The notes below the pieces were generated by a model. The model did no database searches. It was not told the DNA's origin and saw only the letters and a program-made list of their open reading frames with translations. 64,000 nucleotides of DNA from Candidatus Bathyarchaeota archaeon (GTDB lineage: Archaea; Thermoproteota; Bathyarchaeia; Bathyarchaeales; Bathycorpusculaceae). The stretch is from NCBI GenBank assembly GCA_963833575.1, contig CAWHXY010000004.1, forward strand, positions 384,001 to 448,000, in the 5' to 3' direction. Positions 13,493 to 30,485 of this stretch are shown piece by piece. Positions within the stretch are counted from its first letter, which is position 1; each line of letters begins with the position of its first letter. The position numbers and the translations under genes are program-made.

Positions 13493-13532
13493 GAAAACAT
13501 AAAAATCTAAAAGAAAAGGAGAAAAAGAAAAA

Positions 13533-16355
13533 ATGCAAATTAGTAAAAACAAAACACTAGGTATTACGATCGCAATATTGTTAACAATTTCAATGGGAGC
13601 TTCAATGATGCTTATACCCAACGCTATCGCACACACACCATCACAGAGCATTCAACTCTTCGCATTTATCAATGTGGCACCTAACCCTGCAGGCATAGGT
13701 CAAGCTGTAACTGTCAGCTTCTTTCTCAATGAACCACCAATGACAGCAGGCGGTCCATATGGAGACAGATTTGGTCCTTTCACGGTAAATGTTGTAAAGC
13801 CTGATGGAACCAATGAGACACTCGGACCATTTATTTCCGATGACACAGGAGGAACAAGCACTCGCTACACACCCACTCAACTTGGCACATACCAATTCCA
13901 GATGTTTTTCCCAGGAATGAAAATGACTGGATCAACTAACAACCCAGCTTCAGCTGGCGTCAGTCCCAGCAGCGGGCTCATCAGTAATACTGCTTATATT
14001 AATGACACTCTCCTACCGGCAACAAGCTCAGTAGCAACGCTTACAGTGCAACAACAGCCAGTACCATATGTCGCAGGAGCTCCGCTTCCTACATCTTATT
14101 GGCAAACCCCAATAAACGCAATGAACGTTCAGAACTGGTACGCAATTGGCGGTCCTTACCTTGGCCTCTATATTGGTTACAGTGCAGGTAAAGGTGCTTC
14201 CAACTACAATACAACAACAAACTTCAACCCATACTCTTTGGCGCCACAAACATCTCACATCATGTGGACAAGACCAATAGCATTCGGAGGCACAATCGGT
14301 GGAGATGCAGGCGGAACAACAACCTACGGCAACTACTATTCAACCTCTCAGTACGAACGCAAATATGATCCAATAGTCATCAATGGCTACCTCTACTACA
14401 CTCAATTCCCAGGAAGCTCGACTAGCCCAGTAGCTAACGTCGCAGTTGACTTATTCACTGGAAAAACAATATGGACAAACGATGCAAGCAACTATAACGG
14501 TGGCAGTCCAACACAGAACATGCTAACAACGACAGGCGTCGTTACGCCATTTACATGTGGCCAAGTACTCGATTACGTGTCACCTAACCAATACGGAGGA
14601 ATTGCTTATTTATGGACAACAGGGAATCCTGCCTGGATCACTCCAAGTGTTATGAACTTAACTGGAACGACCCTAAACATGTTTGACGCTATGACTGGTA
14701 AATACATCCTCAGCATTGTTAACGGAACAGGTTTCAGCTATGGAAACACGGTAGACGCAAGTGGAGATTTGATATCTTACTACACAAATACCACCGTTGG
14801 AACACAAACAATCTACGGCCAAATTCTGCCGGTTACTGGACCAACACCGACAAAAGTCACTAACACTGCGGGCAACTCACTCCTCGAAGCATGGAACTCA
14901 ACTCAATGTATTATGGAAGGTGCTGGCTGGTCAACTGGATCGGCTTCAGGCTGGCAATGGAGACCCGTACAAGGTTCACTAATTCCATTTTCATATGGAA
15001 TACAATCCGCATGGCAACTACCTGGCACTGTACCAGTTGGTGCATACGCAAATAATGCTACATTGCCAAACACTTGGACAATCATGGGCGTTAACAGCGG
15101 TGTAGCTATTCTTTATTCAGCAGATAACGCAGGACTCACAAACTACTTCCAAAGAGGATCCACAGTCTTTACAGGTTACGACATAAACACGGGAAACCAG
15201 CTATTCGTCCAAAATGAAACCTTCACACCTTACACTGCAGTCAACCTAGACAACTATGGCAACGTCGCCGACGGACTTTTCACCACAGTTATCAAAGAAA
15301 CTGGTCAAGTTACCGCATTCAGTGTCACGACAGGCCAGCAAGCATGGCAAACAACACTTACAGGCGACAATGGCGCACCTATCAATCCATACGATACTAT
15401 CGGCGGAATCAAAGGAAACGTTTACGGCACCAGTTTCCTACTCTTCGGTTTCGGAGGAGACGCCTGGTCTTTAAACATGGCTAATGGCAAACTTAACTGG
15501 TATACAAACACAACTAAACTCATGGGCGACGCTGGCTCTAACACCCCATATGGCGTTTGGCCTATCTGGGTACAAACAGGCATTGGCGGCGGCGGCGGAA
15601 TAGAATGGCTTGAAGTAGGACACGAATATGCACCACCATTGTTCCTTGGAGCACAACTACTGGCATTGAACACTACAACTGGACAACTAGCATGGAGTAT
15701 ACCTTCCTTCGATGTTGATGCAAACCCCGAATTAGCATACGGCATTATGACAACACTAAACGCATATGACAACCAAGTCTACGCTTACGGCCAAGGACCA
15801 AGTGCAACGACTGTTACAGCACCCAGCGTAGGCGTAACAACAGCAACACCAGTAACCATAACAGGCACAGTAATGGACGTATCTGCAGGCGCAAAGCAAG
15901 AAGCAGTAGCAGCGAACTTCCCCAACGGTCTACCAGCAGTTTCTGATGCAAGCATGAGTTCGTTTATGGCATCTGTTTACATGCAACAACCAATTTCTCA
16001 TGACATTACCGGAGTTCCAGTTACACTAAGCGTTGTTGACTCAAACGGCAATTACAGAACCATAGGCAACACTACAACCGACGCTACAGGTTCGTATGGT
16101 CTCAAATGGACACCTGACATATCTGGCTCTTACACTATCGTTGCTACATTCTCAGGATCAGGAGCATACTACGGATCAACAGCTCAAACATACCTATATG
16201 CCAGCGCAGCAACCACACCAGCACCAACAACCGCACCTCAATCAAATCTAGCAACAACAGCAGATCTAATGATATACGTAGTCGCAGCAGCAATCGCCAT
16301 AATCATCGCAATAGCCATAGTTGGCATTGTAATAGTAATGCGGCTCAAAAAATAG
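13533..16355 (+). CDS. Secreted, membrane-anchored PQQ-like beta-propeller surface protein (Bathyarchaeia-type family)
   Basis: Signal peptide, PNPAGIGQ..TLGPFISD N-domain, repeated TG..W propeller motifs, PAVSDASM..GVPVTL C-domain, C-terminal TM anchor plus basic tail. Confidence 0.85.
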   Translation: MQISKNKTLGITIAILLTISMGASMMLIPNAIAHTPSQSIQLFAFINVAPNPAGIGQAVTVSFFLNEPPMTAGGPYGDRFGPFTVNVVKPDGTNETLGPFISDDTGGTSTRYTPTQLGTYQFQMFFPGMKMTGSTNNPASAGVSPSSGLISNTAYINDTLLPATSSVATLTVQQQPVPYVAGAPLPTSYWQTPINAMNVQNWYAIGGPYLGLYIGYSAGKGASNYNTTTNFNPYSLAPQTSHIMWTRPIAFGGTIGGDAGGTTTYGNYYSTSQYERKYDPIVINGYLYYTQFPGSSTSPVANVAVDLFTGKTIWTNDASNYNGGSPTQNMLTTTGVVTPFTCGQVLDYVSPNQYGGIAYLWTTGNPAWITPSVMNLTGTTLNMFDAMTGKYILSIVNGTGFSYGNTVDASGDLISYYTNTTVGTQTIYGQILPVTGPTPTKVTNTAGNSLLEAWNSTQCIMEGAGWSTGSASGWQWRPVQGSLIPFSYGIQSAWQLPGTVPVGAYANNATLPNTWTIMGVNSGVAILYSADNAGLTNYFQRGSTVFTGYDINTGNQLFVQNETFTPYTAVNLDNYGNVADGLFTTVIKETGQVTAFSVTTGQQAWQTTLTGDNGAPINPYDTIGGIKGNVYGTSFLLFGFGGDAWSLNMANGKLNWYTNTTKLMGDAGSNTPYGVWPIWVQTGIGGGGGIEWLEVGHEYAPPLFLGAQLLALNTTTGQLAWSIPSFDVDANPELAYGIMTTLNAYDNQVYAYGQGPSATTVTAPSVGVTTATPVTITGTVMDVSAGAKQEAVAANFPNGLPAVSDASMSSFMASVYMQQPISHDITGVPVTLSVVDSNGNYRTIGNTTTDATGSYGLKWTPDISGSYTIVATFSGSGAYYGSTAQTYLYASAATTPAPTTAPQSNLATTADLMIYVVAAAIAIIIAIAIVGIVIVMRLKK

Positions 16356-16394: not shown

Positions 16395-16667
16395 AGTTCT
16401 TAAAAAAGAAAATTCAAAATAGAGATAAATAGTCTTTGTTTAGATTCACAAGACAGCTGTAATTCGTGATAGAGTTGGCATTTGCTCTTTTTATTGTTCT
16501 CGAAGTCTAAGCAAATCTCAATTGGTCAAAAATCTTCTAATATGTCAGTACAAGCGTCTACGTCACGCTTTTATTAGGCTTATGAATAACAATGCGACGC
16601 TATTTTGCTGAGACAACAAAACAGCAGGCGACAAACGATTCTTATATTCGCAATGTTGTTTGTATTT

Positions 16668-19867: not shown

Positions 19868-20458
19868 ATGAATAGCAAGGAAATAGGGACAGTTATTGCT
19901 TTCACAGCTCTTACAACAACGTTAAACTTTGTCCGAGTACCCGTGCCTTATATGCCGGCGTTCGCTTACCAGTTGGGCGATGTTGTTTTGGTCGTAGTGC
20001 TGTTACTTTTTGGCATCAGAATTGCCATCGCCGCAGCCACTTTGAATATGTTGATAAACATAGTGCTTTCTTTAAGTCCAGCAGGGCCGATTGGTCCACC
20101 TTACTATTTGTTATCGGTTGTTGCAATGTTTTCAGGAGTCTATATTTTTGAAAAAGTGATAAAGAGAAGAATACTAGCCAACCGAGATATAATCAAAACT
20201 GTTTCTCTTGCAACCGGATTTGGAGTTTTAACCAGAGTTCTGATCATGCTACCATTCGACTATTTTGTTTATGGTTTCTTGGTTTCTTTGGTATCTGGCT
20301 TGAGTATTTCGGTTTCGTATGCAATTGTGCTAGCTTCTATGCCCGGGATTATCGTATATAACATCACAGTTCCAGTTATTATGATTCCAATAAGCTATTC
20401 TATAGCCAAGAGCGTGTCGAAGTACCGCTTGTTAAAGTCTGATTCTACCTTGTTTTAA
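19868..20458 (+). CDS. ECF transporter S-component-like membrane protein
   Basis: Hydrophobic ~6 TM; VPVPYMP..YQLGDV..LLFG pattern. Confidence 0.7.
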   Translation: MNSKEIGTVIAFTALTTTLNFVRVPVPYMPAFAYQLGDVVLVVVLLLFGIRIAIAAATLNMLINIVLSLSPAGPIGPPYYLLSVVAMFSGVYIFEKVIKRRILANRDIIKTVSLATGFGVLTRVLIMLPFDYFVYGFLVSLVSGLSISVSYAIVLASMPGIIVYNITVPVIMIPISYSIAKSVSKYRLLKSDSTLF

Positions 20459-20481
20459 GATGTTAGGTATAGGCAGAAATT

Positions 20482-20588
20482 AAGAGTTTGCTGAGGCTCT
20501 GTCCACTTTAGGAGAAAAGAACGCAAATGCAAATGCGCTATCACGATTGCTAATATCATGATTAAGCCAGAGTCCTATTCAGCCTCTT
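20482..20588 (-). ncRNA. Putative BHB-flanked antisense RNA, copy 1 (predicted 90-nt excised product)
   Basis: Minus RNA AAGAG-GCUG-AAU-AGG..CUCUG / CAGAG-CCU-CAGC-AAA-CUCUU; homologous to 29361-29475. Confidence 0.7.
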
Positions 20589-20611
20589 CTATTATGTTCT
20601 TTGTTGGGACT

Positions 20612-20632
20612 AAAAAAAAGGAATAGGGTTTT
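20612..20632 (-). terminator. Pyrimidine/oligo-T terminator of beta-propeller gene
   Basis: Minus strand AAAACCCTATTCCTTTTTTTT, similar to 16376-16394. Confidence 0.5.
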
Positions 20633-20644
20633 GATTGTGGTTGC

Positions 20645-23173
20645 TTATGCTCGTTTTCTGAGCATTAGCACCATTACCATGCCGACTATTGCTATCGCAA
20701 TGATAATTGCAACTACTGCTGGGACAAAGTACGTATCGTATGCTGAAGTGTTATTCTGGACTATTGGTTGAGATGTTGCTGCTGGTGCATTTTCTACGTT
20801 TATGGCAGTTTCAGCTGTTGATCCATAATATGAATTGGAGCCTTCGAAATTAGTAGAGACTGTGTATTGTCCTGGGACACTTGGAGTGAAAGTAAAGCTG
20901 TAGTAGCCGTTTGCATCGCTTGTTGCTGTACCAACTGTGTAAGTATTGTTGTTGGGGTCGAGAACACTGATTGTAACGGGTACTCCTGTGGCGTTAGTTG
21001 GTCGTGGATACTGCATATAGACATATTGCATCCATTCTGTTTGACTTGCGTCAGAGACAGCGGGTACACCTAGTGGGAACCGCGCAGCGACATCATATGT
21101 TTTGGTGCCTGGGGCTATATCAGTAACATACCCTTGCACCATTACTTTATCGCCGTTTATTGATATTGTCGGATCTGCTTGAACTGTTGTTTCAGTTGCG
21201 CCTTTTCCAAATGCATATATACGGTTGTCGTATCCTGCGTTGAGTCCTGCAATTACTCCGTCACCGATAACTGGCGTTCCGCCCCACCAACTGTCAAACC
21301 AACTGCAGGTGTATATTACCTGACCGCTTGTTGCGTTGAGGCAGGTCATATATGCACCTTTAGCTTGTAGGTTGGGGTGGTGTGTTGCGTAGGACAAGTA
21401 GAGTTTTCCGTCAGTAGCGAACCAGAACACTGTCGGCCAATTGTTGCTCCACAAGACTTGAGCATAGTAGTCTGTACAGTTGTAGGTCCATAATCTTTGG
21501 CCAGTGTGGATATTGTAGGCAATTGTCATTCCGCTCTGGCGTTCGCTGTAGAAGATGCCATATGCGATCATGGGGCCGTACCATTTGTCATAGTACGCAA
21601 GGTATGGTTCTTGGTCGGTTTGCCATAAGTAAGCACCCGTGTCTAAACTAAAGCCGTAGAATCTTAGACTTTCTCTGCAAGATATAATGAATACACGATC
21701 AGTGAAGCTCACATCACTCCATACCCAAGTTCCTCCGGTAAAATCTGATGGTACTGTCCAAGTGTTATTGAAGATCAGTTGTCCAGCGGTCCCTACCTTT
21801 GTGCTTATAGCCCATGAAGTAATTGTTGGTCCGGTTGCACCTGGGAATGCGGATGATGTTGATCCAAGTACGCAATCGTCAAATTGAGCATTGCAAACAG
21901 CTCCGGGCAAACCAAGGGGTATCGAAACGTTATAATCATAACCTTGGCTTGCGTCTATTATGCTTCCGATTGGAGTCCAACTGCCATCACCGACTGACCC
22001 CGTAAGCTGTGGGTTGATTGCTCTGCTTGAGTTCCATTCAGTCAACCTACCATTTGTAGTGTCAACGGTGTATCTGTAGATTACGCCATCTGGTCCATAG
22101 TAGTTGTAGTCTGGATTTCCCGCAGGCACGTTTATTAGTTGATATAGCCAGCGTCCAGTAAGAGGGTCATACGCATTCCAAGTATAGGATAATGTTTGCC
22201 CGAATGCACCGGTTACAGGTGTCGAAGTGAATAAGTATGCGAAAGTGCCGTCAAGGTTGAATCCTTTCCAGTGGAAGACTTGGCCAAAGGATAGGCGTGT
22301 GTTGTTCCAGTTCTTTTCCCAAAGTTGTTCTCCAGTTTTAAGGTTTATAGCTACAACTGTTTGTTCAGATATTGGTGCTCCGGTTGAATCATATCTGTTG
22401 AAGTACAATACGCCGTTGATTACTATTGTGTTTAAGAATTTGCCTACGTATGCATCGCCCATCTCCATTCCTCCTCCTTCAGCGGTAATGTTGCCGCCTG
22501 CCAATCCTCCTTCAGCGTATTGATAAGTCCATAGTACGTGAGCGGTTTCAGGTGCACCTTCGTTACCGGGTATGTACTTATCATCTGGGGGCATTGTGTA
22601 ACTTCCTATGGCTCTTAGCCAGTCACCGGTCAATGGAGCCCATTGTTCGAATTGGGCGTTTATTGGACGGTTCCAGTATTCAGTTGGCAGTGGGAAAGCT
22701 GGAAAATAAGCTATTGGGTTTTGCTGTACTACTAGGTAAGTTATTGGACTGTCACTGGCGGCGTATGGTATGGAGCCAACTCCTACGAAGGGAATTGCCA
22801 TGTTTTGTGCTGGGAAGTGGGTTTGGAATTTGTATGTGCCGACCATTGTTGGAACATAAATTGAGCCTGTCCCCCCTGTTGCGTCAGTACTAAATGGGCC
22901 TAGGGTTTCAGTGGTGTTGTCAGGTTTTGTTACTGTTACAGTCAATCCTGTCCATTTAAAATAGGTTCCAGCTGTGGGTTCTGATATTCCGATGTGGAGA
23001 AGGACTTCTTGGCCAACGCCGACTGGATTTGGGGTAGTTCCGAGAAACGCATATGTTTTTTTAGGAGTTGCTGTTGTTGTCTGCGCATTGCTTGTTGGAT
23101 ATGCTGCAATTAGAGAAACTGCAAATGCAAGTATAATAAATACTGCTGCGATTTGATTTATGCTTGTTTTCAT
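20645..23173 (-). CDS. Secreted PQQ-like beta-propeller surface protein (paralog of 13533-16355)
   Basis: Signal peptide, PNPVGVGQ, TLGPFSTD, PAVSDASQ..GVPVTI, C-terminal TM anchor. Confidence 0.85.
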   Translation of the reverse strand: MKTSINQIAAVFIILAFAVSLIAAYPTSNAQTTTATPKKTYAFLGTTPNPVGVGQEVLLHIGISEPTAGTYFKWTGLTVTVTKPDNTTETLGPFSTDATGGTGSIYVPTMVGTYKFQTHFPAQNMAIPFVGVGSIPYAASDSPITYLVVQQNPIAYFPAFPLPTEYWNRPINAQFEQWAPLTGDWLRAIGSYTMPPDDKYIPGNEGAPETAHVLWTYQYAEGGLAGGNITAEGGGMEMGDAYVGKFLNTIVINGVLYFNRYDSTGAPISEQTVVAINLKTGEQLWEKNWNNTRLSFGQVFHWKGFNLDGTFAYLFTSTPVTGAFGQTLSYTWNAYDPLTGRWLYQLINVPAGNPDYNYYGPDGVIYRYTVDTTNGRLTEWNSSRAINPQLTGSVGDGSWTPIGSIIDASQGYDYNVSIPLGLPGAVCNAQFDDCVLGSTSSAFPGATGPTITSWAISTKVGTAGQLIFNNTWTVPSDFTGGTWVWSDVSFTDRVFIISCRESLRFYGFSLDTGAYLWQTDQEPYLAYYDKWYGPMIAYGIFYSERQSGMTIAYNIHTGQRLWTYNCTDYYAQVLWSNNWPTVFWFATDGKLYLSYATHHPNLQAKGAYMTCLNATSGQVIYTCSWFDSWWGGTPVIGDGVIAGLNAGYDNRIYAFGKGATETTVQADPTISINGDKVMVQGYVTDIAPGTKTYDVAARFPLGVPAVSDASQTEWMQYVYMQYPRPTNATGVPVTISVLDPNNNTYTVGTATSDANGYYSFTFTPSVPGQYTVSTNFEGSNSYYGSTAETAINVENAPAATSQPIVQNNTSAYDTYFVPAVVAIIIAIAIVGMVMVLMLRKRA

Positions 23174-23571
23174 GTTTTACATTCCTTTCATTTTCGTGTT
23201 TTTCATGTCGGCTTATTCAGTTTATAAGACTTTTCAATACAGCGGTAGCATATGACTTTTATTTAATTTATTTCAACATTATCGCTAAAAATAGTTCATT
23301 ATGTTCATTCTGTTTATCACATCATTTCAAAATTGAGGACACACCTTTTCGCCTTGTGCGCAGTTTCTTGACTGAGTGGGCCAAAGATGGCCCCAATGTT
23401 CACAAAACTTGATGTTTATGGTTTTTTCAAAATTCAAAAATGCCTAAATCTCAAAATCAAGAGTTTCTAATAAAAAACTTGAAGTGAATGAAAAGACGGG
23501 ACTAAAGTTTTCGTAACGTTATCATAATGGATATTAGCGGAAGAATCGATATTTCTTGTGAGGAATTATAA

Positions 23572-23826
23572 TTGATTAAAGGCAAATTTGAGGAGCAGAT
23601 TGTTGAGCCGTATTTACCAAACAAGATTGTTCCCCCAGAATATATTAGAGATGTCTTGAATGAGGCAAACCAAGATTTCCCATCTTTAGATTTTGAAATT
23701 GATGTCCCTCACAAATGGGCAATACAAGAGTACAAAGAAAGATACGAAGAGTTGGAACGCCAGATGATGGAAATTTTATCATGGCGCATAAGATGGTTTG
23801 GAAATAAAGAAACAGACAAAAAATAA
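23572..23826 (+). CDS. Hypothetical protein
   Basis: 84-aa ORF after GTGAGG RBS. Confidence 0.6.
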
Positions 23827-25500
23827 CAACACTTGTTTCAAATCTCGATTATTTTCTTTTTTTTTTCTTTGTCCAAAATAAACCGAAATGGTCAGAGCAA
23901 TGACCACAATTGCAACTACCAAAAGTACAACTTCATTCTTAAAGCTAAGAAGGGTTGACGTAGAAGACTGATTTGACGGAGTTGCAGTGGATTGACTTAT
24001 CGGAGTTGAAGCCGGGGACGAAGATGGAATTGACAACGGGGTTGGCGATACTGCTGTGTGGGTCGGAGATGAAGTGGGGACGGCTGACGAATATGTTTGA
24101 GCGGTCGAAGAGTCAGCAACAAAATTAGCGGGTTCAATTAGGGTTAATTGAGGAGATTGTTCAAAGTCAAATGAGTTCATCATATCGCTGGCATTCACGT
24201 CTCTTACTCCAAGAGTTTGAAGATTGAAATTTACTTCTGCAAGTTTGAGCATCGACGAGAATTCGTATTGTGTGTGGTCGATATAGTGAGATTTTGCCCA
24301 AGGGGAAATGACCAAGGTTGGAACGCGGAAGCCTAAGCCGCTTTGATCAATTTGTGGTGGAGCAACGTGATCGTAAAAACCTCCATAGTCATCCCAAGTT
24401 ACTACGATGGCAGTTGATTGCCAATATGGGCTGTTCATAACTTGATTAATGAGGTATGAAACATAATCCATTCCAGCGTCCGAGCGGGCTGGAGGATGCT
24501 CACTGACAGATTCGTTTGCAAAAACTGAGGGCAAGGTCGGAGGATGCCAACTTCCAGGCATGATCCAAGACACTGCAGGCAAATTATTGTTCTGTATATC
24601 AACCGAGAAATTCTCCGTATTTTCTACGTGCGCCGAAAGCTCTTCAGGATGGATTTGGAAATAATTGAACAGAGGAAGAACATTCCACAGCGTGGGCTCA
24701 ATAGGATTTGTGTTCCCATCGTACCACTTCCAAGACAAATTACCAATAGAAAGTTCTTCAGCTAAAGTTGACCAGGTCAAGTTTGCTTCTGGCCAAACCA
24801 CAGTGGGAGCTTTACCGCCAGGAACAGTTATGCAGGGCGGATTATCAATTATGCTGCCGTTTGAAACCCAAGAATCATTTGAGTCGATTGGACCATCGGT
24901 CCCTGAAGCAATGTAAAGATGATTTGGAAAACTTGGTCCCATCTCAGAAGAAAAGAAATTGTCATCCAAGACATACTTATCCGCGTAATCCCAATAATAA
25001 GGGATATCACTTCTATTGTAATAGCCCAAAGTTAAGGTGCTTCCTTCAGCTTGGACAAAGCCATCCATTTTGCCGTTATCATAAGCCTGACGTGCAACTT
25101 CTGATGAATGATCAATGTCCTGGCCAATTGATTCAGAGATAAGATGAAACGGCAACTCAGAAGTGTTATTAACAGGCGCAAGATCTTCAGGATCAGCCAC
25201 TCCAGGTGGAAGTTCATCTCCTACTATTGAAATTGGTTGGGTGACGTTAAGATGGTAGGGTTCGACATAACCTGACGTTTCGTTGTTTGGGTCGACGGGA
25301 ACAGAGGTATTTGATAGAATGCCGTTAGCTCCAGGATAAGTTCCAAAGTAATTATCAAATGAATGGTTCTCTTGAACAATAAATATTAAATGCTGAATTT
25401 TTGTTTGAGAGTTATTGGAAGATTGAATTGGAAGAATAACTCCAGAACTTAAAATAAAGATTGAAATTATGATTGCCGCTGCAAACACGATTGTTTTCAA
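23779..25500 (-). CDS. Secreted phosphoesterase / phospholipase C (AcpA-like), membrane-anchored
   Basis: [41 protein letters not shown]; S/T/P linker plus TM. Confidence 0.9.
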
Positions 25501-25902
25501 AGCTTATTCGCCTATTTGCAGCACTTGGTTCGTTTGATGCACAGCCCTTCAATAAAATTATTGCATTAATAAATAAACCGCAAAAAGCTCTGAACAGTGA
25601 CTTCAAAAACAAAAAGCAGGGTACAGATATTTCTGAAGAGACAACCATTTGATTTTTGTTGCTTCAGTTTAGCGAGCGAGGTTCGTGCCTTAGTAATTGC
25701 AAAATTGGAGCTTGAAAATAGCGTGAAAATGAAAAAATGGGCAAATTCGCTTTTAATGCTTTCAGCACATCATTTCATTGTCTCTACTATCAATTGGAGA
25801 CAAATTCTTCGAACTAAGCAAATTTATTCCGACAGGTGCTTCACAAATAATTCTATGAACCGCAATGTAAACTAATAGAAACGACTTTTCTATGACCCGA
25901 AC

Positions 25903-27390
25903 CTAACATCTTCTCTTCTTCAAATAAGCAAAAACAGCTAGCACAATCGCAATCCCAATTCCCGCTATTGCAACACCAGTTATGATCCAAGTGTTGGAAG
26001 AAGGCGAAGGCGACGTTGAGGGTTGAGTTGAGTGAGTTGGAGTAGGTGAACCAAGTTGTGTCGGTGAAAGAGTTTGAGTTGGAGAAGGTGAGGAAGTTGG
26101 TGTCGGTGTGGTACTCGGTGACGTAGTTGGCGACGCTGACTGTACAGGAATAAAAGCACTTGAGCTTAGATTGGTAACCAAGCCGATTCTATATATTAAC
26201 CAACCCGTAGGGAAAGTGATCGTTCTCACTATTTGTCCAGCTGGGTTAACTTCAATTAAATCAGCTCCAGTATCATTGAAGCCCCAGGGTTGGTTTTCTG
26301 GAAATTGATGCGTTGGACTGCCGAAGTCACCAATCCAGTCTCCGTTTGGCAATATGTCGGTTGCTCCCAAAAATTGTGTATAGTATTGTTCTGGCGCAGT
26401 CCAACTCCAATTTACAAAAGCGGTCATGTTTTGCTCGTTTAATGTCAGCTCTATCATTTGGCTATTGGCATCATTTGGATTTGTTATGTTATCAAAATCG
26501 TTATTAAACATGGTAAAAACATCTGGTGCGACTAGCTCAAGGTCATGACTGTGAAACCAGAGGCTTGAAACTTGAGTGCCGTTTGCTCCAAGAAGGGTAA
26601 AGTTGCCAAACTGTCCACAAGCCCAGATAATGTCGCCGGATGTTTGATTAATTTTGTAGAAAGTATTTGTGTTCCTTACATTCAGATAGATTACGTTATG
26701 AGTGTAGTCCCAATCTAGAGCGTTGGCATGCGTGAAATCGATCACGGTTTGTCCATTGAGTGTAGCTGTAAGATTGAAAGGATCAGTTTCAGTGAGAGGT
26801 ATATGATCATAAGAGTCCCAACTCCACAAAATATTACCTGCGGTGTCAACTTCCACAATTTTGTCAACTAAAATCGAATTGTTTCCCACTTCTCTCACGT
26901 AATCCTGCAAAGTAAGAAATGTGTTATTGATCGGATCATATTCAAGGTCATGTTCACCAATAACTTCAGGAAAGTCTTGAGTTGAGTTTGAATCAACATT
27001 CCATATATGCGAAGCATAGGTCGGAGCGGCGTTTGATCCGTCTACCTCAGGCTCGCCCTGAAACATTAAAGTGTCCGTTGCAATGTTCTTCACGACGCCA
27101 TAGGCACCGTTGGATTCCCGAAGATCTATCAGTGTACCGTTGGTGTTCATAACCACCAAATAATCATTGAGTCCAAAAGCTAATAATCCATTCCAAGCGT
27201 TTCCAAATGTAGTAACAGTGCATGGCAAAACAAATCCTTGAGCGGCCACCTTTTGAACTGCTACTTGATCTATAGGGAAGAATCCAATGGAAAAAACAAG
27301 AATTACAATTAGTGTTGTAGTTTCAATAACAATTAGACTCTTAGATAACATAAAACTAAATTTCGCCTCAATTTCCTGAAAATCAGGCAA
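25903..27390 (-). CDS. Arylsulfotransferase (ASST) family, membrane-anchored
   Basis: WSWDSYDH, DFTHANAL, FHSHD, FNND; S/P/T linker plus TM. Confidence 0.8.
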   Translation of the reverse strand: MPDFQEIEAKFSFMLSKSLIVIETTTLIVILVFSIGFFPIDQVAVQKVAAQGFVLPCTVTTFGNAWNGLLAFGLNDYLVVMNTNGTLIDLRESNGAYGVVKNIATDTLMFQGEPEVDGSNAAPTYASHIWNVDSNSTQDFPEVIGEHDLEYDPINNTFLTLQDYVREVGNNSILVDKIVEVDTAGNILWSWDSYDHIPLTETDPFNLTATLNGQTVIDFTHANALDWDYTHNVIYLNVRNTNTFYKINQTSGDIIWACGQFGNFTLLGANGTQVSSLWFHSHDLELVAPDVFTMFNNDFDNITNPNDANSQMIELTLNEQNMTAFVNWSWTAPEQYYTQFLGATDILPNGDWIGDFGSPTHQFPENQPWGFNDTGADLIEVNPAGQIVRTITFPTGWLIYRIGLVTNLSSSAFIPVQSASPTTSPSTTPTPTSSPSPTQTLSPTQLGSPTPTHSTQPSTSPSPSSNTWIITGVAIAGIGIAIVLAVFAYLKKRRC

Positions 27391-27589
27391 GCAACTAAAA
27401 GAGTGGTAACTATCACAGACCTATAAAGAATTGTGATTGATTCGTAACAGTTACACCGTTTTGCGTTGTTACAATTCATTTGGAAAAAAGACAGCTTTAC
27501 GACAACATTCAGAAGTCAAAGCCGCGTCAATAACATACCGTTTTTGAACTTTTTTTATCGTTTAACTTGATGACTCAAACAGAATCTCA

Positions 27590-28846
27590 CTATAATTTAG
27601 AAAGTCTGGTTGATAATAACGGTACAATCATTTCTTCAGGCGTCATTCCGCCATGGGCACCATAGATGTTTTGGGGCGTTTCTCTTGGGCGGTATTGGTG
27701 GAGGATTATGTTTTTGCTGTGGCTCAATGCTGTAAAGGTTCCAACTGTTGTTTGTAGTCGATCTAAGTTCTTGACTGGACCAAACGCGCCTTTTTCAATT
27801 AGATCAGCTGACCGCATCACGCGGAATCCTTGAAGGCTGTTTTCCAAAGCTTCCCTGAGTGGCTCTTGTTGACCATATTTTGGGAAAAAATATGTGGACC
27901 GCATGTCTCCAGTCGGAGGTACAAGAAAAAGATTGGAAACGGGCGGTTGATTAAGAAAATGTGTTTGCCCCGTTTCCACTACGCCATGATCCGCGGTTAT
28001 AAGAAGCATCGTTTTCTGCTTTGTAACCATTGAAAGCTTCTCGATCAATTGACTTCTTAGAAGGCTTTCAAAGAGTTGTAGCTCAGCTGACACCTCCTCT
28101 GAATAGGGACCATATGAGTGTTCCATTGTGTCAATGCCTCCATAGTAAACGATTAAAAGAAGCTGTCCCGGCTGCTCAAGAGCCCGCTTAACCTGAACCA
28201 TCATGTCCGAAGCCAACGCATAACCAACCAAATCCTGACGCCTATGAATCAACCGTGATAAGCCGCTGCCCGCAAGATTTCTTCGCGTGAAAGTCTTAAC
28301 ATTGACACCTTCGTCAAGGAGCAAAGGCGGCCAGGGAAAAGAAGACTCTGAAAAAAAATCAACCAAATCAATTCCGCTACTATACCCGACAGCAGGCGCC
28401 ATTTCTAACGTGTTGAATATGAGTCCGTAATCGGGAACATACATGTTAAAGCCTATTACGCCGTGCAAAGAGGGAGGTACACCTGTGAAGATGCTAATTA
28501 AAGCGGTTGACGTGGTTGAGGGAAAAGAACTCGATAAAGCCTTCAAAACGCCCCTTTCTGCCAAATCATAGAAGCCGCCTTTAAACTTCTCCATATGAGA
28601 AACGAGGCGATCGTAGCCTAAGCCATCAACCACGAAAAGAACAACCTTGTCCACACCAGAAAAATCATCCACAACCGCACCTGAAAGATTCACCCTCACC
28701 AAAGCTTTAACAGAAAAGATTTTCCCAACAACTGAACCAATGTTGGCGATGTTGAACTGTTCATAATCTGGCAAAACAAAACTTTCCAAAAAAGAACGAC
28801 GACTAACCAACCCATTAACATCTTCTTTGAAAACATCAAAATCCAA
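27590..28846 (-). CDS. Alkaline-phosphatase superfamily phosphodiesterase / nucleotide pyrophosphatase
   Basis: VVDGLG, FPSTTSTA, TADHG, GAHGG..EEM.VP. Confidence 0.88.
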   Translation of the reverse strand: MDFDVFKEDVNGLVSRRSFLESFVLPDYEQFNIANIGSVVGKIFSVKALVRVNLSGAVVDDFSGVDKVVLFVVDGLGYDRLVSHMEKFKGGFYDLAERGVLKALSSSFPSTTSTALISIFTGVPPSLHGVIGFNMYVPDYGLIFNTLEMAPAVGYSSGIDLVDFFSESSFPWPPLLLDEGVNVKTFTRRNLAGSGLSRLIHRRQDLVGYALASDMMVQVKRALEQPGQLLLIVYYGGIDTMEHSYGPYSEEVSAELQLFESLLRSQLIEKLSMVTKQKTMLLITADHGVVETGQTHFLNQPPVSNLFLVPPTGDMRSTYFFPKYGQQEPLREALENSLQGFRVMRSADLIEKGAFGPVKNLDRLQTTVGTFTALSHSKNIILHQYRPRETPQNIYGAHGGMTPEEMIVPLLSTRLSKL

Positions 28847-28973
28847 ACAAATCCCACTCTATTTGAAGCAGAGCTTCCTTATATTTCTTAAAATAGGAAA
28901 AACAACCAGCTAAGATATGAAAAGGAAAAAGCAAAATAGCATTGAAATGTTACTTAAGTATAGAGGGAGTAAT

Positions 28974-29093
28974 TTGGAAGCATATGCTGTCTTAGGTAAA
29001 TTGGCTGATATAGATAAAAAATTAGAACTAATAGAACAACGATTGAGAAATATTGAAACAAAGTTAGATATCATTCAAGGTCACAAACCATAG
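28974..29093 (+). CDS. Coiled-coil microprotein (39 aa; in-frame ATG at 28947 also possible)
   Basis: GAGGGAG RBS; MEAYAVLGKLADIDKKLELIEQRLRNIETKLDIIQGHKP heptad pattern. Confidence 0.5.
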   Translation: MEAYAVLGKLADIDKKLELIEQRLRNIETKLDIIQGHKP

Positions 29094-29360
29094 AAACCAA
29101 ATGTGGATAATTAAATAATTACAAGAGCATCTTGTTAAATTACCCCTATGTTTCGCTGAAAAACACTTCTGTTTTTTTCAATAATAGCAAATTAATCACT
29201 TTACTTAAAGTCACTAAGAACCACGAACGTGTATGAGCCTACAGCCAAAGTTATTAATTTCAAAACGGTTTGCTGGACGCTTGATTAAATTGTCTTGCTG
29301 CAAAAACTATAGAACAGCTTCAGTCCAAAACGTTTTTTTTAGCTGCGAAAAATGTCGAGA

Positions 29361-29475
29361 AGTAGGGTTTGCTGAGGCTCTGGGAGTTTTCTTTTAGGAG
29401 AAAAAGAAAAATGCAAATACCATCACGATTGCTATTGTACTTCGTGAATTTAACCAGAGCCTACTCAGCCCCACT
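29361..29475 (-). ncRNA. Putative BHB-flanked antisense RNA, copy 2 (predicted 95-nt excised product)
   Basis: Minus RNA GGG-GCUG-AGU-AGGCUCUGG / CCAGAGCCU-CAGC-AAA-CCC; TATA-like ATATTCTTAAG on minus strand at ~29509-29519. Confidence 0.72.
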
Positions 29476-29638
29476 GTTTTTGATTGGTTAACTCTTATTG
29501 GCACATTCTCTTAAGAATATGTAATCAGTGCCACTTCTGACAGGAATTGGTAGCAATTTGAGACTAAATTTGACTGAATGTGGAAAAAAGTTGATAAGTC
29601 CCTGCAAAAATTCTCATTTGCTTTGAGGGAGAATAGCA

Positions 29639-30485
29639 ATGCTTCAAAGTGACGAAGCAACCGGAACACTAATGGATTTAGGACTTACGTATTTGCAAGC
29701 GAAAACGTACTTAAGTCTAACTAAGTTTGAAAAAGCGGAAGCCAATAAAATTGCGAAAATTTCGGATATTGCTCGACAAGACAGCTATAGAATAATGGCA
29801 ACACTTGAAAACCTAGGTCTTGTAGAAAAAATAATAGCAAAACCGATTTCATACAAAGCTACGCCTCTGAAAGAAGGCTCCTTAATGTTGCTACAAAAGA
29901 AAACTAAGGAGCACAGGATATTACAAAAGAAAACAAAATCACTTTTAGATGGTGACCAGAAAAGAAATCTTCTAATCGCTCATGAAGAAAACACACAATT
30001 CACAATTACTTCTGAAAGGAAACTTTTTGTGAAAAGGCTAGAAAAATCATTTGAAGAAGCTAAAACCTGTGAGAAGGTTTTTTCCAGCGGCAGGTTTACA
30101 TTTCACTTTGTTTCATTTTTTCCAAATTCTCAAATTGGCATTGAGGAAGGGTGCAAAAATTCGAATAATTACTGAAGCCACAGAATTCACCTCAATAAGC
30201 AAAAAAATAGAAATATTAGAGAAAAATCCTTTTTTCAAAATCAAATTTGCTTCTTCACCCATTAATTTTGGAATAATACTTTTTGATAACAAACAAGTGA
30301 ATATGTGCATTTCTAATAGTAGCCATGCAGAGGTTCCGAGTTTAGGCACCAATAATCAACAATGTGTAGAGGCAGCCAAAATGATGTTTGAAGTTATGTG
30401 GAATAATGATCAAGAAAGAAATATTAGAAATCTGGAAACTCTGCCTCAAATTGAGGAATTACATGAGAGAACTATTCAGCGCTAG
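29639..30485 (+). pseudogene. TrmB family regulator, frameshifted (or sequencing error)
   Basis: N-terminal TrmB HTH (LGLTYLQAKTY..LGLVEK) in one frame, C-terminal domain in another; shift at T-run ~30078-30083. Confidence 0.75.

Follow-up and report, generated by a model that had tools for sequence, protein, structure and literature searches.

The window analysed here is a stretch of 64,000 nucleotides (nt) from the 2.75-Mb genome of a Candidatus Bathyarchaeota archaeon (genome G000; contig CAWHXY010000004.1, positions 384,001 to 448,000), and the positions of elements are counted within it unless a contig label precedes them. Two intergenic elements in this window, copies A and B, had been described in an earlier note as probable genes of small circular RNAs, framed by a bulge-helix-bulge (BHB), the motif that is cut by the archaeal splicing endonuclease EndA. 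The window also contains a decayed third copy and two members of a paralogous family of large protein genes, and the core of the elements is antisense to the translation start region of this family. The features concerned are the following (aa, amino acids; hBHBh', the BHB with its flanking helices h and h').

13517..13541, plus strand: start region of the second paralog, AGGAGAAAAAGAAAAAAUGCAAAUU; these 25 nt are the longest exact complement to any core in the genome
13533..16355, plus strand: the second window paralog, 940 aa, whose product starts MQISKNK
16414..16523, plus strand: third copy of the element, decayed; covariance-model score 49.3 bits, E 3.5e-7; begins ~65 nt behind the paralog gene 13533-16355
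20484..20586, minus strand: copy A, full hBHBh' module with helices GAG/CUC and GCUG/CAGC and bulges AAU and AAA; covariance-model score 97.4 bits, E 4.3e-18
20488-20577: predicted circle of copy A, 90 nt
20508..20536, minus strand: core of copy A, a hairpin with the anti-AUG GCAUUUGCAUUUGC followed by the anti-Shine-Dalgarno UUUUCUCCUAA; antisense to the paralog start region
20609..20623, minus strand: C-rich motif and T-tract CCUUUUUUUUAGU, between the P0001 stop codon and copy A
20645..23173, minus strand: paralog P0001, 842 aa; copy A lies ~58-60 nt past its stop codon
29365..29472, minus strand: copy B, full hBHBh' module with helices GGG/CCC and GCUG/CAGC and bulges AGU and AAA; covariance-model score 105.9 bits, E 5.1e-20
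29369-29463: predicted circle of copy B, 95 nt
29393..29419, minus strand: core of copy B, antisense to the paralog start region, with the anti-Shine-Dalgarno UCUCCU in a hairpin loop

The product of P0001 has a signal peptide, a PQQ/BamB-like beta-propeller (PF13360, E 2.3e-7), an Ig-like domain and a C-terminal membrane anchor; no NCBIfam model matches it at the cut-off of the model. Its relatives in Bathyarchaeota records are named 'PQQ-binding-like beta-propeller repeat protein', and 1179 proteins among the 7999 scored match it at E ≤ 1e-20. The decayed copy retains the T-tract and the internal hairpin of the element, and its BHB pairing and anti-Shine-Dalgarno are gone. The gene ahead of this decayed copy is the one whose start region is best matched by intact elements elsewhere.

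The common ends and core of copies A and B were found where the earlier note had placed them, the mean column identity being 78% over 159 aligned columns, and the 5'-end pattern occurs at two sites in the window and at none in 100 shuffles. Folding of both strands predicts the minus-strand BHB in each copy, with 3-4-3 geometry: an outer helix, a central 4-bp GCUG/CAGC helix with two 3-nt bulges, and a 9-bp inner helix. Each bulge lies 3' of the central helix on its strand (AAU in copy A or AGU in copy B; AAA). The internal hairpin with its G-U pair is likewise predicted on the minus strand, and the proposed double change of the outer stem between GAG/CUC and GGG/CCC is real, as pair 10-145 reads A-U in copy A against G-C in 22 other copies. 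The junctions that had been proposed, 20488/20577 and 29369/29463, coincide with the canonical cut sites under the rule that the cut falls after the second bulge nucleotide. A 25-letter pattern of the predicted junction found 0 stretches in metagenome contigs, which are mostly DNA assemblies where a 95-nt ring would rarely be assembled. A listing of sequencing runs for 20000-29999 contained no RNA run; neither outcome speaks for or against the circles.

As had been claimed, no tRNA or rRNA halves flank the elements: the window is free of tRNA genes by ARAGORN and contains no Rfam tRNA. Rfam 15 gives 0 matches in the 64-kb window at the gathering score, and under permissive settings the best scores for the two copies are 12.2 and 13.3 bits, with E above 1. 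Several familiar identities were tried and rejected. A tRNA intron or a split or permuted tRNA gene would have tRNA exons at its flanks, and none are seen (ARAGORN, Rfam, window). A relic of an rRNA processing stem is not indicated either, the flanks of the single 16S gene (C4, ~51.2-52.7 kb) being unlike the element ends. The C box RUGAUGA, which in C/D box small RNAs (sRNAs) is joined to the D box CUGA by a terminal stem, is present in 0 of 25 copies, and the weak C/D matches (11.6-11.8 bits, with gathering scores of 37-40) fall on the other strand. A coding role was rejected on the ground that the small open reading frames (ORFs), sense and antisense, vary in length and frame.

The earlier note had listed two copies of the family. 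Both copies are real, but the family is far larger. BLAST and motif scanning identified ~25 full copies in the G000 genome, and a covariance model, built on the BHB and one internal hairpin from the alignment of 25 of these copies, recovers 27 at E ≤ 3.5e-7, the decayed window copy included. When the search was extended to Bathyarchaeia, as had been suggested, many homologs were recovered. The model detects the element in 28 of 36 further members of the genus and in both genomes of a genus in another family, and in 0 of 22 other genomes sampled from the order. Of 151 genomes drawn across the class, 11 (G000 counted) are positive, and these belong to five genera in two families, bar one weak match. 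Among the matches listed in a 19-letter scan of named genomes (at least 80), 71 are in Candidatus Bathyarchaeota or Bathyarchaeia metagenome-assembled genomes and two in 'uncultured archaeon' records, and seven are bacterial chance matches.

The weak match, G183:C523:1285-1405 (36.6 bits, E 2.8e-4), is in a distant family of the class, in an assembly of 550 contigs with 5% contamination. The match may be a genuine outlier, or the contig may be mis-binned. Module length is ~95-125 nt across the family. Tandem pairs or triplets occur behind one gene at G000 C4:949041-949168 with C4:949339-949451, and also at L068 (three copies), L140, G168:C15, G089:C8 and G193:C1. One orphan copy, at C4:799979, has 225 nt upstream of it an ORF of 267 aa (C4:798951-799754) with a weak match to a terminase RNaseH-like domain (PF17289, E 1.5e-4, just under the cut-off), and this copy may be in or near viral DNA.

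Compensatory changes support the stems of the BHB. In an alignment of 75 distinct copies from other genomes, which was fitted to the covariance model and is biased towards the structure, 1517 cells were scored; 92.9% of them pair, and double changes occur at 16 of 22 pairs (62 cells). In the same alignment, none of 500 shuffles reaches any of five measures, and sliding the partner by 1-3 columns lowers pairing to 31-52%. An alignment of the G000 copies by MAFFT gives 92.7% pairing, with double changes at 7 of 22 pairs. The central helix is paired in 99.0% of cells in G000 and in 98.7% in other genomes, the 9-bp inner helix in 94.6-97.2%, and the outer GGG/CCC helix in 84-88%; in copy C7:531293 the central 4-bp helix is replaced by GUUG/CAAC. 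The 3-4-3 geometry is kept by the homologs, the 3' bulge being AAA in 24 of 25 copies in G000 and in 73 of 75 from other genomes, and the 5' bulge being A-R-N (A-G/A-N) in every aligned copy. The hBHBh' arrangement, with flanking helices of at least 2 bp and bulges 3' of the central helix, is present. The family and its structure are almost certainly real and under selection.

The polarity of the motif is right on the minus strand only, as had been stated, and is identical to that of the intron of the G000 tRNA-Arg(CCG) gene (outer helix, 4-bp helix, 3-nt bulge, inner helix). It also agrees with the hBHBh' definition in those parts of PMC4090602 that were available. The modules share the strand of the gene ahead of them, and G-U pairs exceed A-C mismatches in the BHB helices of this named strand (39 vs 24 and 16 vs 8), an excess that modestly favours it. 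Copy A folds at -34.9 kcal/mol (z -2.83) on the minus strand and worse on the plus strand (-27.7 kcal/mol, z -1.65), and copy B at -38.6 kcal/mol (z -4.41) on the minus strand. It may be supposed that the opposite strand is the functional one, specifying a short transcript with a true ribosome-binding site (RBS) and start codon for a small peptide, or an antisense to the paralog 3' end. The plus reading does contain AGGAGAAAA(N)AAAUGCAAAU, a well-spaced Shine-Dalgarno and AUG, and copy B folds well on that strand. However, ORFs from this AUG range from 2 to 104 codons (most 8-26) with varying frame and sequence in 22 in-element matches from an approximate coordinate list, the spacing between conserved blocks varies in non-multiples of three, and both the polarity of the BHB and the balance of G-U over A-C point to the other strand. 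A functional plus strand is therefore extremely unlikely.

The enzymes for processing such a motif are encoded in the G000 genome, which has two EndA-family genes (PF01974, 96 and 70.5 bits) and one RtcB gene (PF01139, 588 bits). The former are located as follows.

G000 C7:351219-351458 and C6:37209-37463: the EndA-family genes, in frames of 203 and 198 aa

Two separate genes suggest a heteromeric splicing endonuclease, and enzymes of this kind accept relaxed BHB motifs. Introns are predicted by ARAGORN in 8 of the 44 tRNAs of the genome. Processing of the element by EndA to a ring is regarded as rather probable.

The elements had been regarded as stand-alone intergenic genes. This holds in so far as they have no tRNA or rRNA host, but most of them are at a fixed distance behind members of one paralogous gene family. 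In G000, 17 of the 25 copies follow the stop codon of a same-strand ORF (825-1074 aa) at a distance of 60-73 nt, and one further copy is behind a more distant PQQ_2 protein. Conversely, of 31 P0001-homologous ORFs of at least 600 aa in this genome, 17 have a covariance-model match starting 58-73 nt downstream. The same layout recurs outside G000: of 78 copies in other genomes, 54 are found 44-96 nt past a P0001 homolog with 28-52% identity (three of these 78 rows repeat a place that is already counted, and some misses are at contig ends or are second tandem copies). It is also seen in G052, a single-contig genome of another family, where a copy is found behind 14 of 15 paralogs and 14 of 17 copies are behind a paralog. 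The paralogs have diverged to ~30-45% identity while the element ends are near-identical, which indicates that the element is inherited with the gene and is kept by selection or homogenisation.

These observations bear on the possibility of a DNA-level element, which could be a miniature transposon whose ends are inverted or an anchor for recombination or gene conversion among paralog cassettes. Conserved repeats behind the Neisseria pilin loci offer an analogy for such an anchor. The family has many copies with inverted termini, orphan and tandem copies occur, and conserved 5' and 3' flanks around a diversifying surface-protein family would suit cassette exchange. The earlier note had named target-site duplications as the mark of a miniature inverted-repeat transposable element. 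None were found, flank identity being 0-2 nt in 23 of 25 copies, and the sites are not unrelated to one another, most being behind paralog stop codons. The fixed position behind the stop codons of paralogs that are only 28-52% identical indicates inheritance with the gene rather than insertion. Moreover, compensatory changes keep the stems paired, the GUUG/CAAC replacement included, and an exact 3-4-3 geometry serves nothing in DNA. A DNA-level element is for these reasons considered very unlikely.

Between the stop codon and the element there is a conserved C-rich motif with a T-tract, CUUUCCCCUUUUUUAGUC. A run of at least five T ends 22-37 nt ahead of GCUG in 65 of 96 copies examined, and in orphan copies a similar position is taken by different A/T-rich boxes. 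The T-tract may end the transcript of the gene, act as a TATA-like box of the element, or do both, and the distances fit either. Its position also bears on the suggestion that the element is an ordinary 3' stabilising or terminating hairpin of paralog mRNAs, which is never cut by EndA and resembles a BHB incidentally. The location just behind genes and the long GC-rich stem in an AT-rich genome are in line with this suggestion, but the T-tract precedes the stem rather than following it, and a plain stem would neither hold two 3-nt bulges exactly 4 bp apart in ~100 copies nor keep an internal antisense start region. An ordinary hairpin is accordingly a highly improbable explanation.

The leader between the T-tract and the 5' GGG often reads AAUGGAGAAAAAAUUG (e.g. 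upstream of G000 C7:481215 and in L054-L060), which is Shine-Dalgarno-like and complementary to the UUUUUCUCC within the element itself. In the precursor this leader could hide the core; alternatively, it could lengthen the outer stem together with a UUCUCCAAUUG trailer (C4:949041, C4:952242). Copy B is situated between a divergent TrmB-family gene and a phosphodiesterase gene. Other genes are found at 23779-28846 (minus strand) and 29639-30175 (plus strand): those between copies A and B encode a phosphoesterase-family protein (PF04185), an arylsulfotransferase-like protein (PF05935) and a type I phosphodiesterase (PF01663), and the one that diverges from copy B encodes a TrmB-family regulator.

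The plus-strand motifs AGGAGAAAA and AAATGCAAAT of the elements are a Shine-Dalgarno sequence and a start codon with the first codons. They had been seen earlier without interpretation, and are here read as the mark of a reverse-complemented paralog start region. Many paralogs begin ...UUAGGAGAAAAGAAAAAUG(C/A)AAAU, encoding MQI or MKI, and the element reads ...AUUUGCAUUUUUCUUUUUCUCCUAA... on its own strand; the conserved core is the reverse complement of the Shine-Dalgarno, the spacer and the AUG, to ~+8. When the reverse-complemented interiors of the elements are searched genome-wide outside the elements, the longest exact matches are 25, 24, 19 and 19 nt, all of them at paralog starts. Matches of 16 and 17 nt that carry the Shine-Dalgarno are mostly at paralog starts too, one exception being the start of an unrelated 193-aa ORF. 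A perfect complement of at least 12 nt is present in 19 of 29 paralog start regions versus 13 of 923 other Shine-Dalgarno-bearing start regions, and the controls give a maximum of 12 nt for the sense and 11 nt for the reversed version.

Predicted duplexes with the start region at 13517-13541 agree with this. Copy B pairs with it over 23 bp, interrupted by one bulge, at -28.2 kcal/mol (shuffled targets, -12.3 ± 2.9), and copy A reaches -24.1 kcal/mol (shuffled mean -11.1). In the predicted circles the anti-Shine-Dalgarno window has a mean unpaired probability of 0.64 versus 0.43 overall, as averaged over the 21 of 23 folded circles that have a CUCC or AUCC motif, the other two giving no value. 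The hairpin loop exposes UCUCCU in one subfamily and UUUGCAUU, which holds the complement of AUG, in another. Contiguous complementarity over both the Shine-Dalgarno and the start codon is found, then, in a part of the RNA that is predicted to be accessible.

Two further observations concern the core and the hairpin. The 3' end of the 16S rRNA (G000 C4:51200-51260, minus strand) reads GAUCACCUCCUAA, and the UCUCCUAA of the element is similar to it, a likeness to be expected of a competitor of the 16S rRNA for Shine-Dalgarno sites. A mini-hairpin, UCACGAUACGUGA, which is the 5' half of the element's internal hairpin, occurs in the sense direction ~40-60 nt upstream of two paralog start codons, and could be a shared protein-binding site or a remnant.

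G000 C4:803240-803275: mini-hairpin, ahead of the paralog that starts at C4:803301
G000 C4:~806430-806460: mini-hairpin, ahead of the paralog that starts at C4:806486

In another genus the start region is different, and the core has changed accordingly. The paralog start regions of G052 read GAAGGUGAAAAAAUG or GAAGGAAUGAAAAAUG (in longer form, GAAGGUGAAAAAAUGAAAAA or UUGAAGGAAUGAAAAAAUG), and the element core of that genome is their complement, CAUUUUUUCACCUUC or CAUUUUUUCAUUCCUUC. A 20-letter pattern of the first G052 start type has 18 matches at up to 3 mismatches versus 5 for a backward control; by coordinates, 8 of the 18 are antisense within elements and 4 are at paralog starts. The mean best complement per start region is 13.3 nt for G000 cores on G000 starts and 13.1 nt for G052 on G052, and 8.7 and 10.3 nt across genomes. 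This comparison was made in full for two genomes, and some G052 start codons were crudely picked, which can only lower the within-genome value.

The co-variation is of value in judging a further possibility, that the elements yield a BHB-processed stable RNA with some other role (a protein-binding or scaffold ring with an unknown partner) and that the likeness to start regions is the leftover of an inverted duplication of the gene 5' end. The sequence of the BHB arms is conserved far past the needs of pairing, the conserved hairpin UUCACGA...AUAG...UCGUGA is unrelated to the start region, and one subfamily masks the anti-Shine-Dalgarno, all of which would be natural for such an RNA. A passive relic, however, would not be expected to change along with the start region between genera, and UUUUCUCC is among the best-conserved internal stretches. 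Another role for a stable BHB-processed RNA is therefore regarded as unlikely.

The complementarity might act in cis or in trans. In the former case, the core in the 3' untranslated region (UTR) would close the start of its own mRNA and BHB excision would lift the block, so that splicing is the activating step and the ring a by-product. The fixed distance past the stop codon on the same strand suits this arrangement, and a BHB intron in a Haloferax mRNA leader matters for expression, according to the part of PMC7714728 at hand. The pairs of gene and element do not, however, behave as the cis arrangement demands. The match within own pairs averages 8.2 nt versus 9.6 nt for other combinations, the own start ranking 3rd to 29th of 29; copy A has no match to the start region of its own gene, eight of 25 copies in G000, copy B included, have no paralog ahead, and the T-tract separates gene from element. 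That own pairs are not the best matched argues for trans action across the family over cis action, and the chance that the latter is correct appears small.

The reading that is preferred here is that of a BHB-released circular antisense RNA which would block ribosome binding across the paralog family. The module would be transcribed either by read-through across the T-tract behind the gene or from a separate promoter that overlaps this tract. The heteromeric EndA would cut both bulges, and RtcB would close the excised piece of 85-115 nt into a ring. The ring would then pair in trans with the ribosome-binding sites of paralog mRNAs and block initiation, and the outcome would be a family-wide feedback or a cross-repression among surface-protein variants. 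Sequence comparison establishes the family and its distribution, the selected BHB, the enzymes, the linkage to paralogs, and the complementarity with its co-variation between two genera.

Against this reading, several points must be considered. Transcription, strand, cleavage, circularisation, pairing with mRNA and the block of initiation are all steps that we infer from DNA. Copy B folds equally well on the plus strand (-40.7 kcal/mol, z -3.87), so that folding energy alone cannot fix the strand, and the excess of G-U over A-C is just ~1.6- to 2-fold. The conserved T-tract between gene and element may end transcription before the element is reached. Neither window copy pairs notably with the P0001 start region (-17.3 and -14.5 kcal/mol, within the shuffled range). 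With whole interiors against start regions, RNAduplex separates the paralogs modestly (median -25.6 vs -22.4 kcal/mol, Mann-Whitney p 2.8e-4); this energy is noisy because GC-rich start regions score well by chance, and the length of exact complement was used in its place. The enrichment of exact complements and its p-value overstate independence, because the paralogs are kin and have A-rich start regions of low complexity. A third subfamily pairs its anti-Shine-Dalgarno internally (e.g. C7:474652, unpaired probability 0.14). Finally, an inverted duplication whose parts are kept alike at the DNA level could have left the complementarity behind as a relic.

On balance, the proposal of a circular antisense RNA that blocks ribosome binding across the family stands about midway between acceptance and rejection. 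A more specific form of it, in which the tRNA-splicing machinery makes ring RNAs, each encoded at the tail of a paralog and antisense to the family-wide RBS, and one variant feeds back on all, is offered tentatively, the doubts about it somewhat exceeding its merits. If this form is true, it would constitute a self-referential circuit for dosage control, or for the mutually exclusive display, of ~30 cell-surface variants. The predictions of the circular antisense reading are sharp, consisting of nucleotide-exact junctions, defined target sites, and a core and target that co-vary.

The elements may be compared with several known systems. Cleavage of BHB motifs followed by RtcB ligation is known as a maturation of tRNA, rRNA and a handful of single RNAs. 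The BHB introns of pre-tRNAs and the processing stems of pre-rRNAs, with EndA, RtcB and circular products, are like the elements in the geometry and polarity of hBHBh', and the enzymes are encoded here. Unlike these substrates, the elements have no tRNA or rRNA exons, are present in 27 copies per genome, and hold the conserved information in the excised piece rather than in the flanks.

Few BHB substrates are known outside tRNA and rRNA. Those described in the consulted part of PMC7714728 are the introns of the cbf5 mRNA in Crenarchaeota and of the HVO_1309 leader (5' UTR) in Haloferax volcanii, which are excised as rings; the BHB in the HVO_1309 leader was cut by recombinant EndA (PMC7714728). 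Like the elements, these are BHBs tied to a protein-coding gene. As portrayed in that text they are, however, single genes in which the motif is in the leader or the coding part and the ring has no known role, whereas the elements lie past the stop codon and a T-tract, behind ~30 paralogs, and carry an antisense start.

From the relevant excerpts of PMC12558985 and PMC4090602, a C/D box sRNA is housed in the intron of tRNA-Trp. This is a functional small RNA set free as a BHB-excised ring, as is predicted for the elements, but the elements have no C box, no Rfam C/D match and no tRNA host. The permuted signal recognition particle (SRP) RNA of Thermoproteus is matured by BHB cleavage and circularisation, as related in the available portion of PMC4731332, and is an example of a non-tRNA RNA that depends on the splicing machinery, as predicted for the elements. 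It is a single housekeeping RNA in this account, in contrast to the elements, which are multi-copy, gene-linked and without an SRP match. In a survey of archaeal circular RNAs, the rings reported in the sections seen are from rRNA, tRNA and insertion sequences (IS), the IS-associated rings being without a BHB (PMC12558985).

With respect to the mode of action, the proposed occlusion of the RBS and the origin just behind a coding gene are features shared with sRNAs derived from bacterial 3' UTRs. Base-pairing sRNAs of bacteria, including 3'-UTR-derived ones, cover the Shine-Dalgarno and the start codon; they are linear, cut by RNase E and often Hfq-dependent. Unlike these, the elements have a predicted biogenesis in which tRNA-splicing enzymes lead to a ring, and their targets would be the gene family of the host gene. 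In agreement with the earlier note, a literature search (Bathyarchaeia BHB small RNA; splicing-endonuclease antisense rings), which covered texts but not supplements, turned up no matching described family, and Rfam 15 has none.

What is found here, therefore, is a BHB signal that frames a multi-copy small RNA family seemingly built to regulate, conserved among uncultured archaea of soil and peat that represent five genera. Should the ring form and pair as predicted, the role of the splicing endonuclease would widen from RNA maturation to the production of regulators. The rings would be the first circular RNAs excised at a BHB that serve as antisense regulators in trans, an instance from the Archaea of translation control by circular antisense RNA, and a first handle on how Bathyarchaeia control a large, fast-diverging surface-protein family of unknown function. 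In comparison with the systems above, the processing signal and the mode of action are each known; what is new is their combination, the multi-copy layout behind paralogs, and the self-referential targeting.

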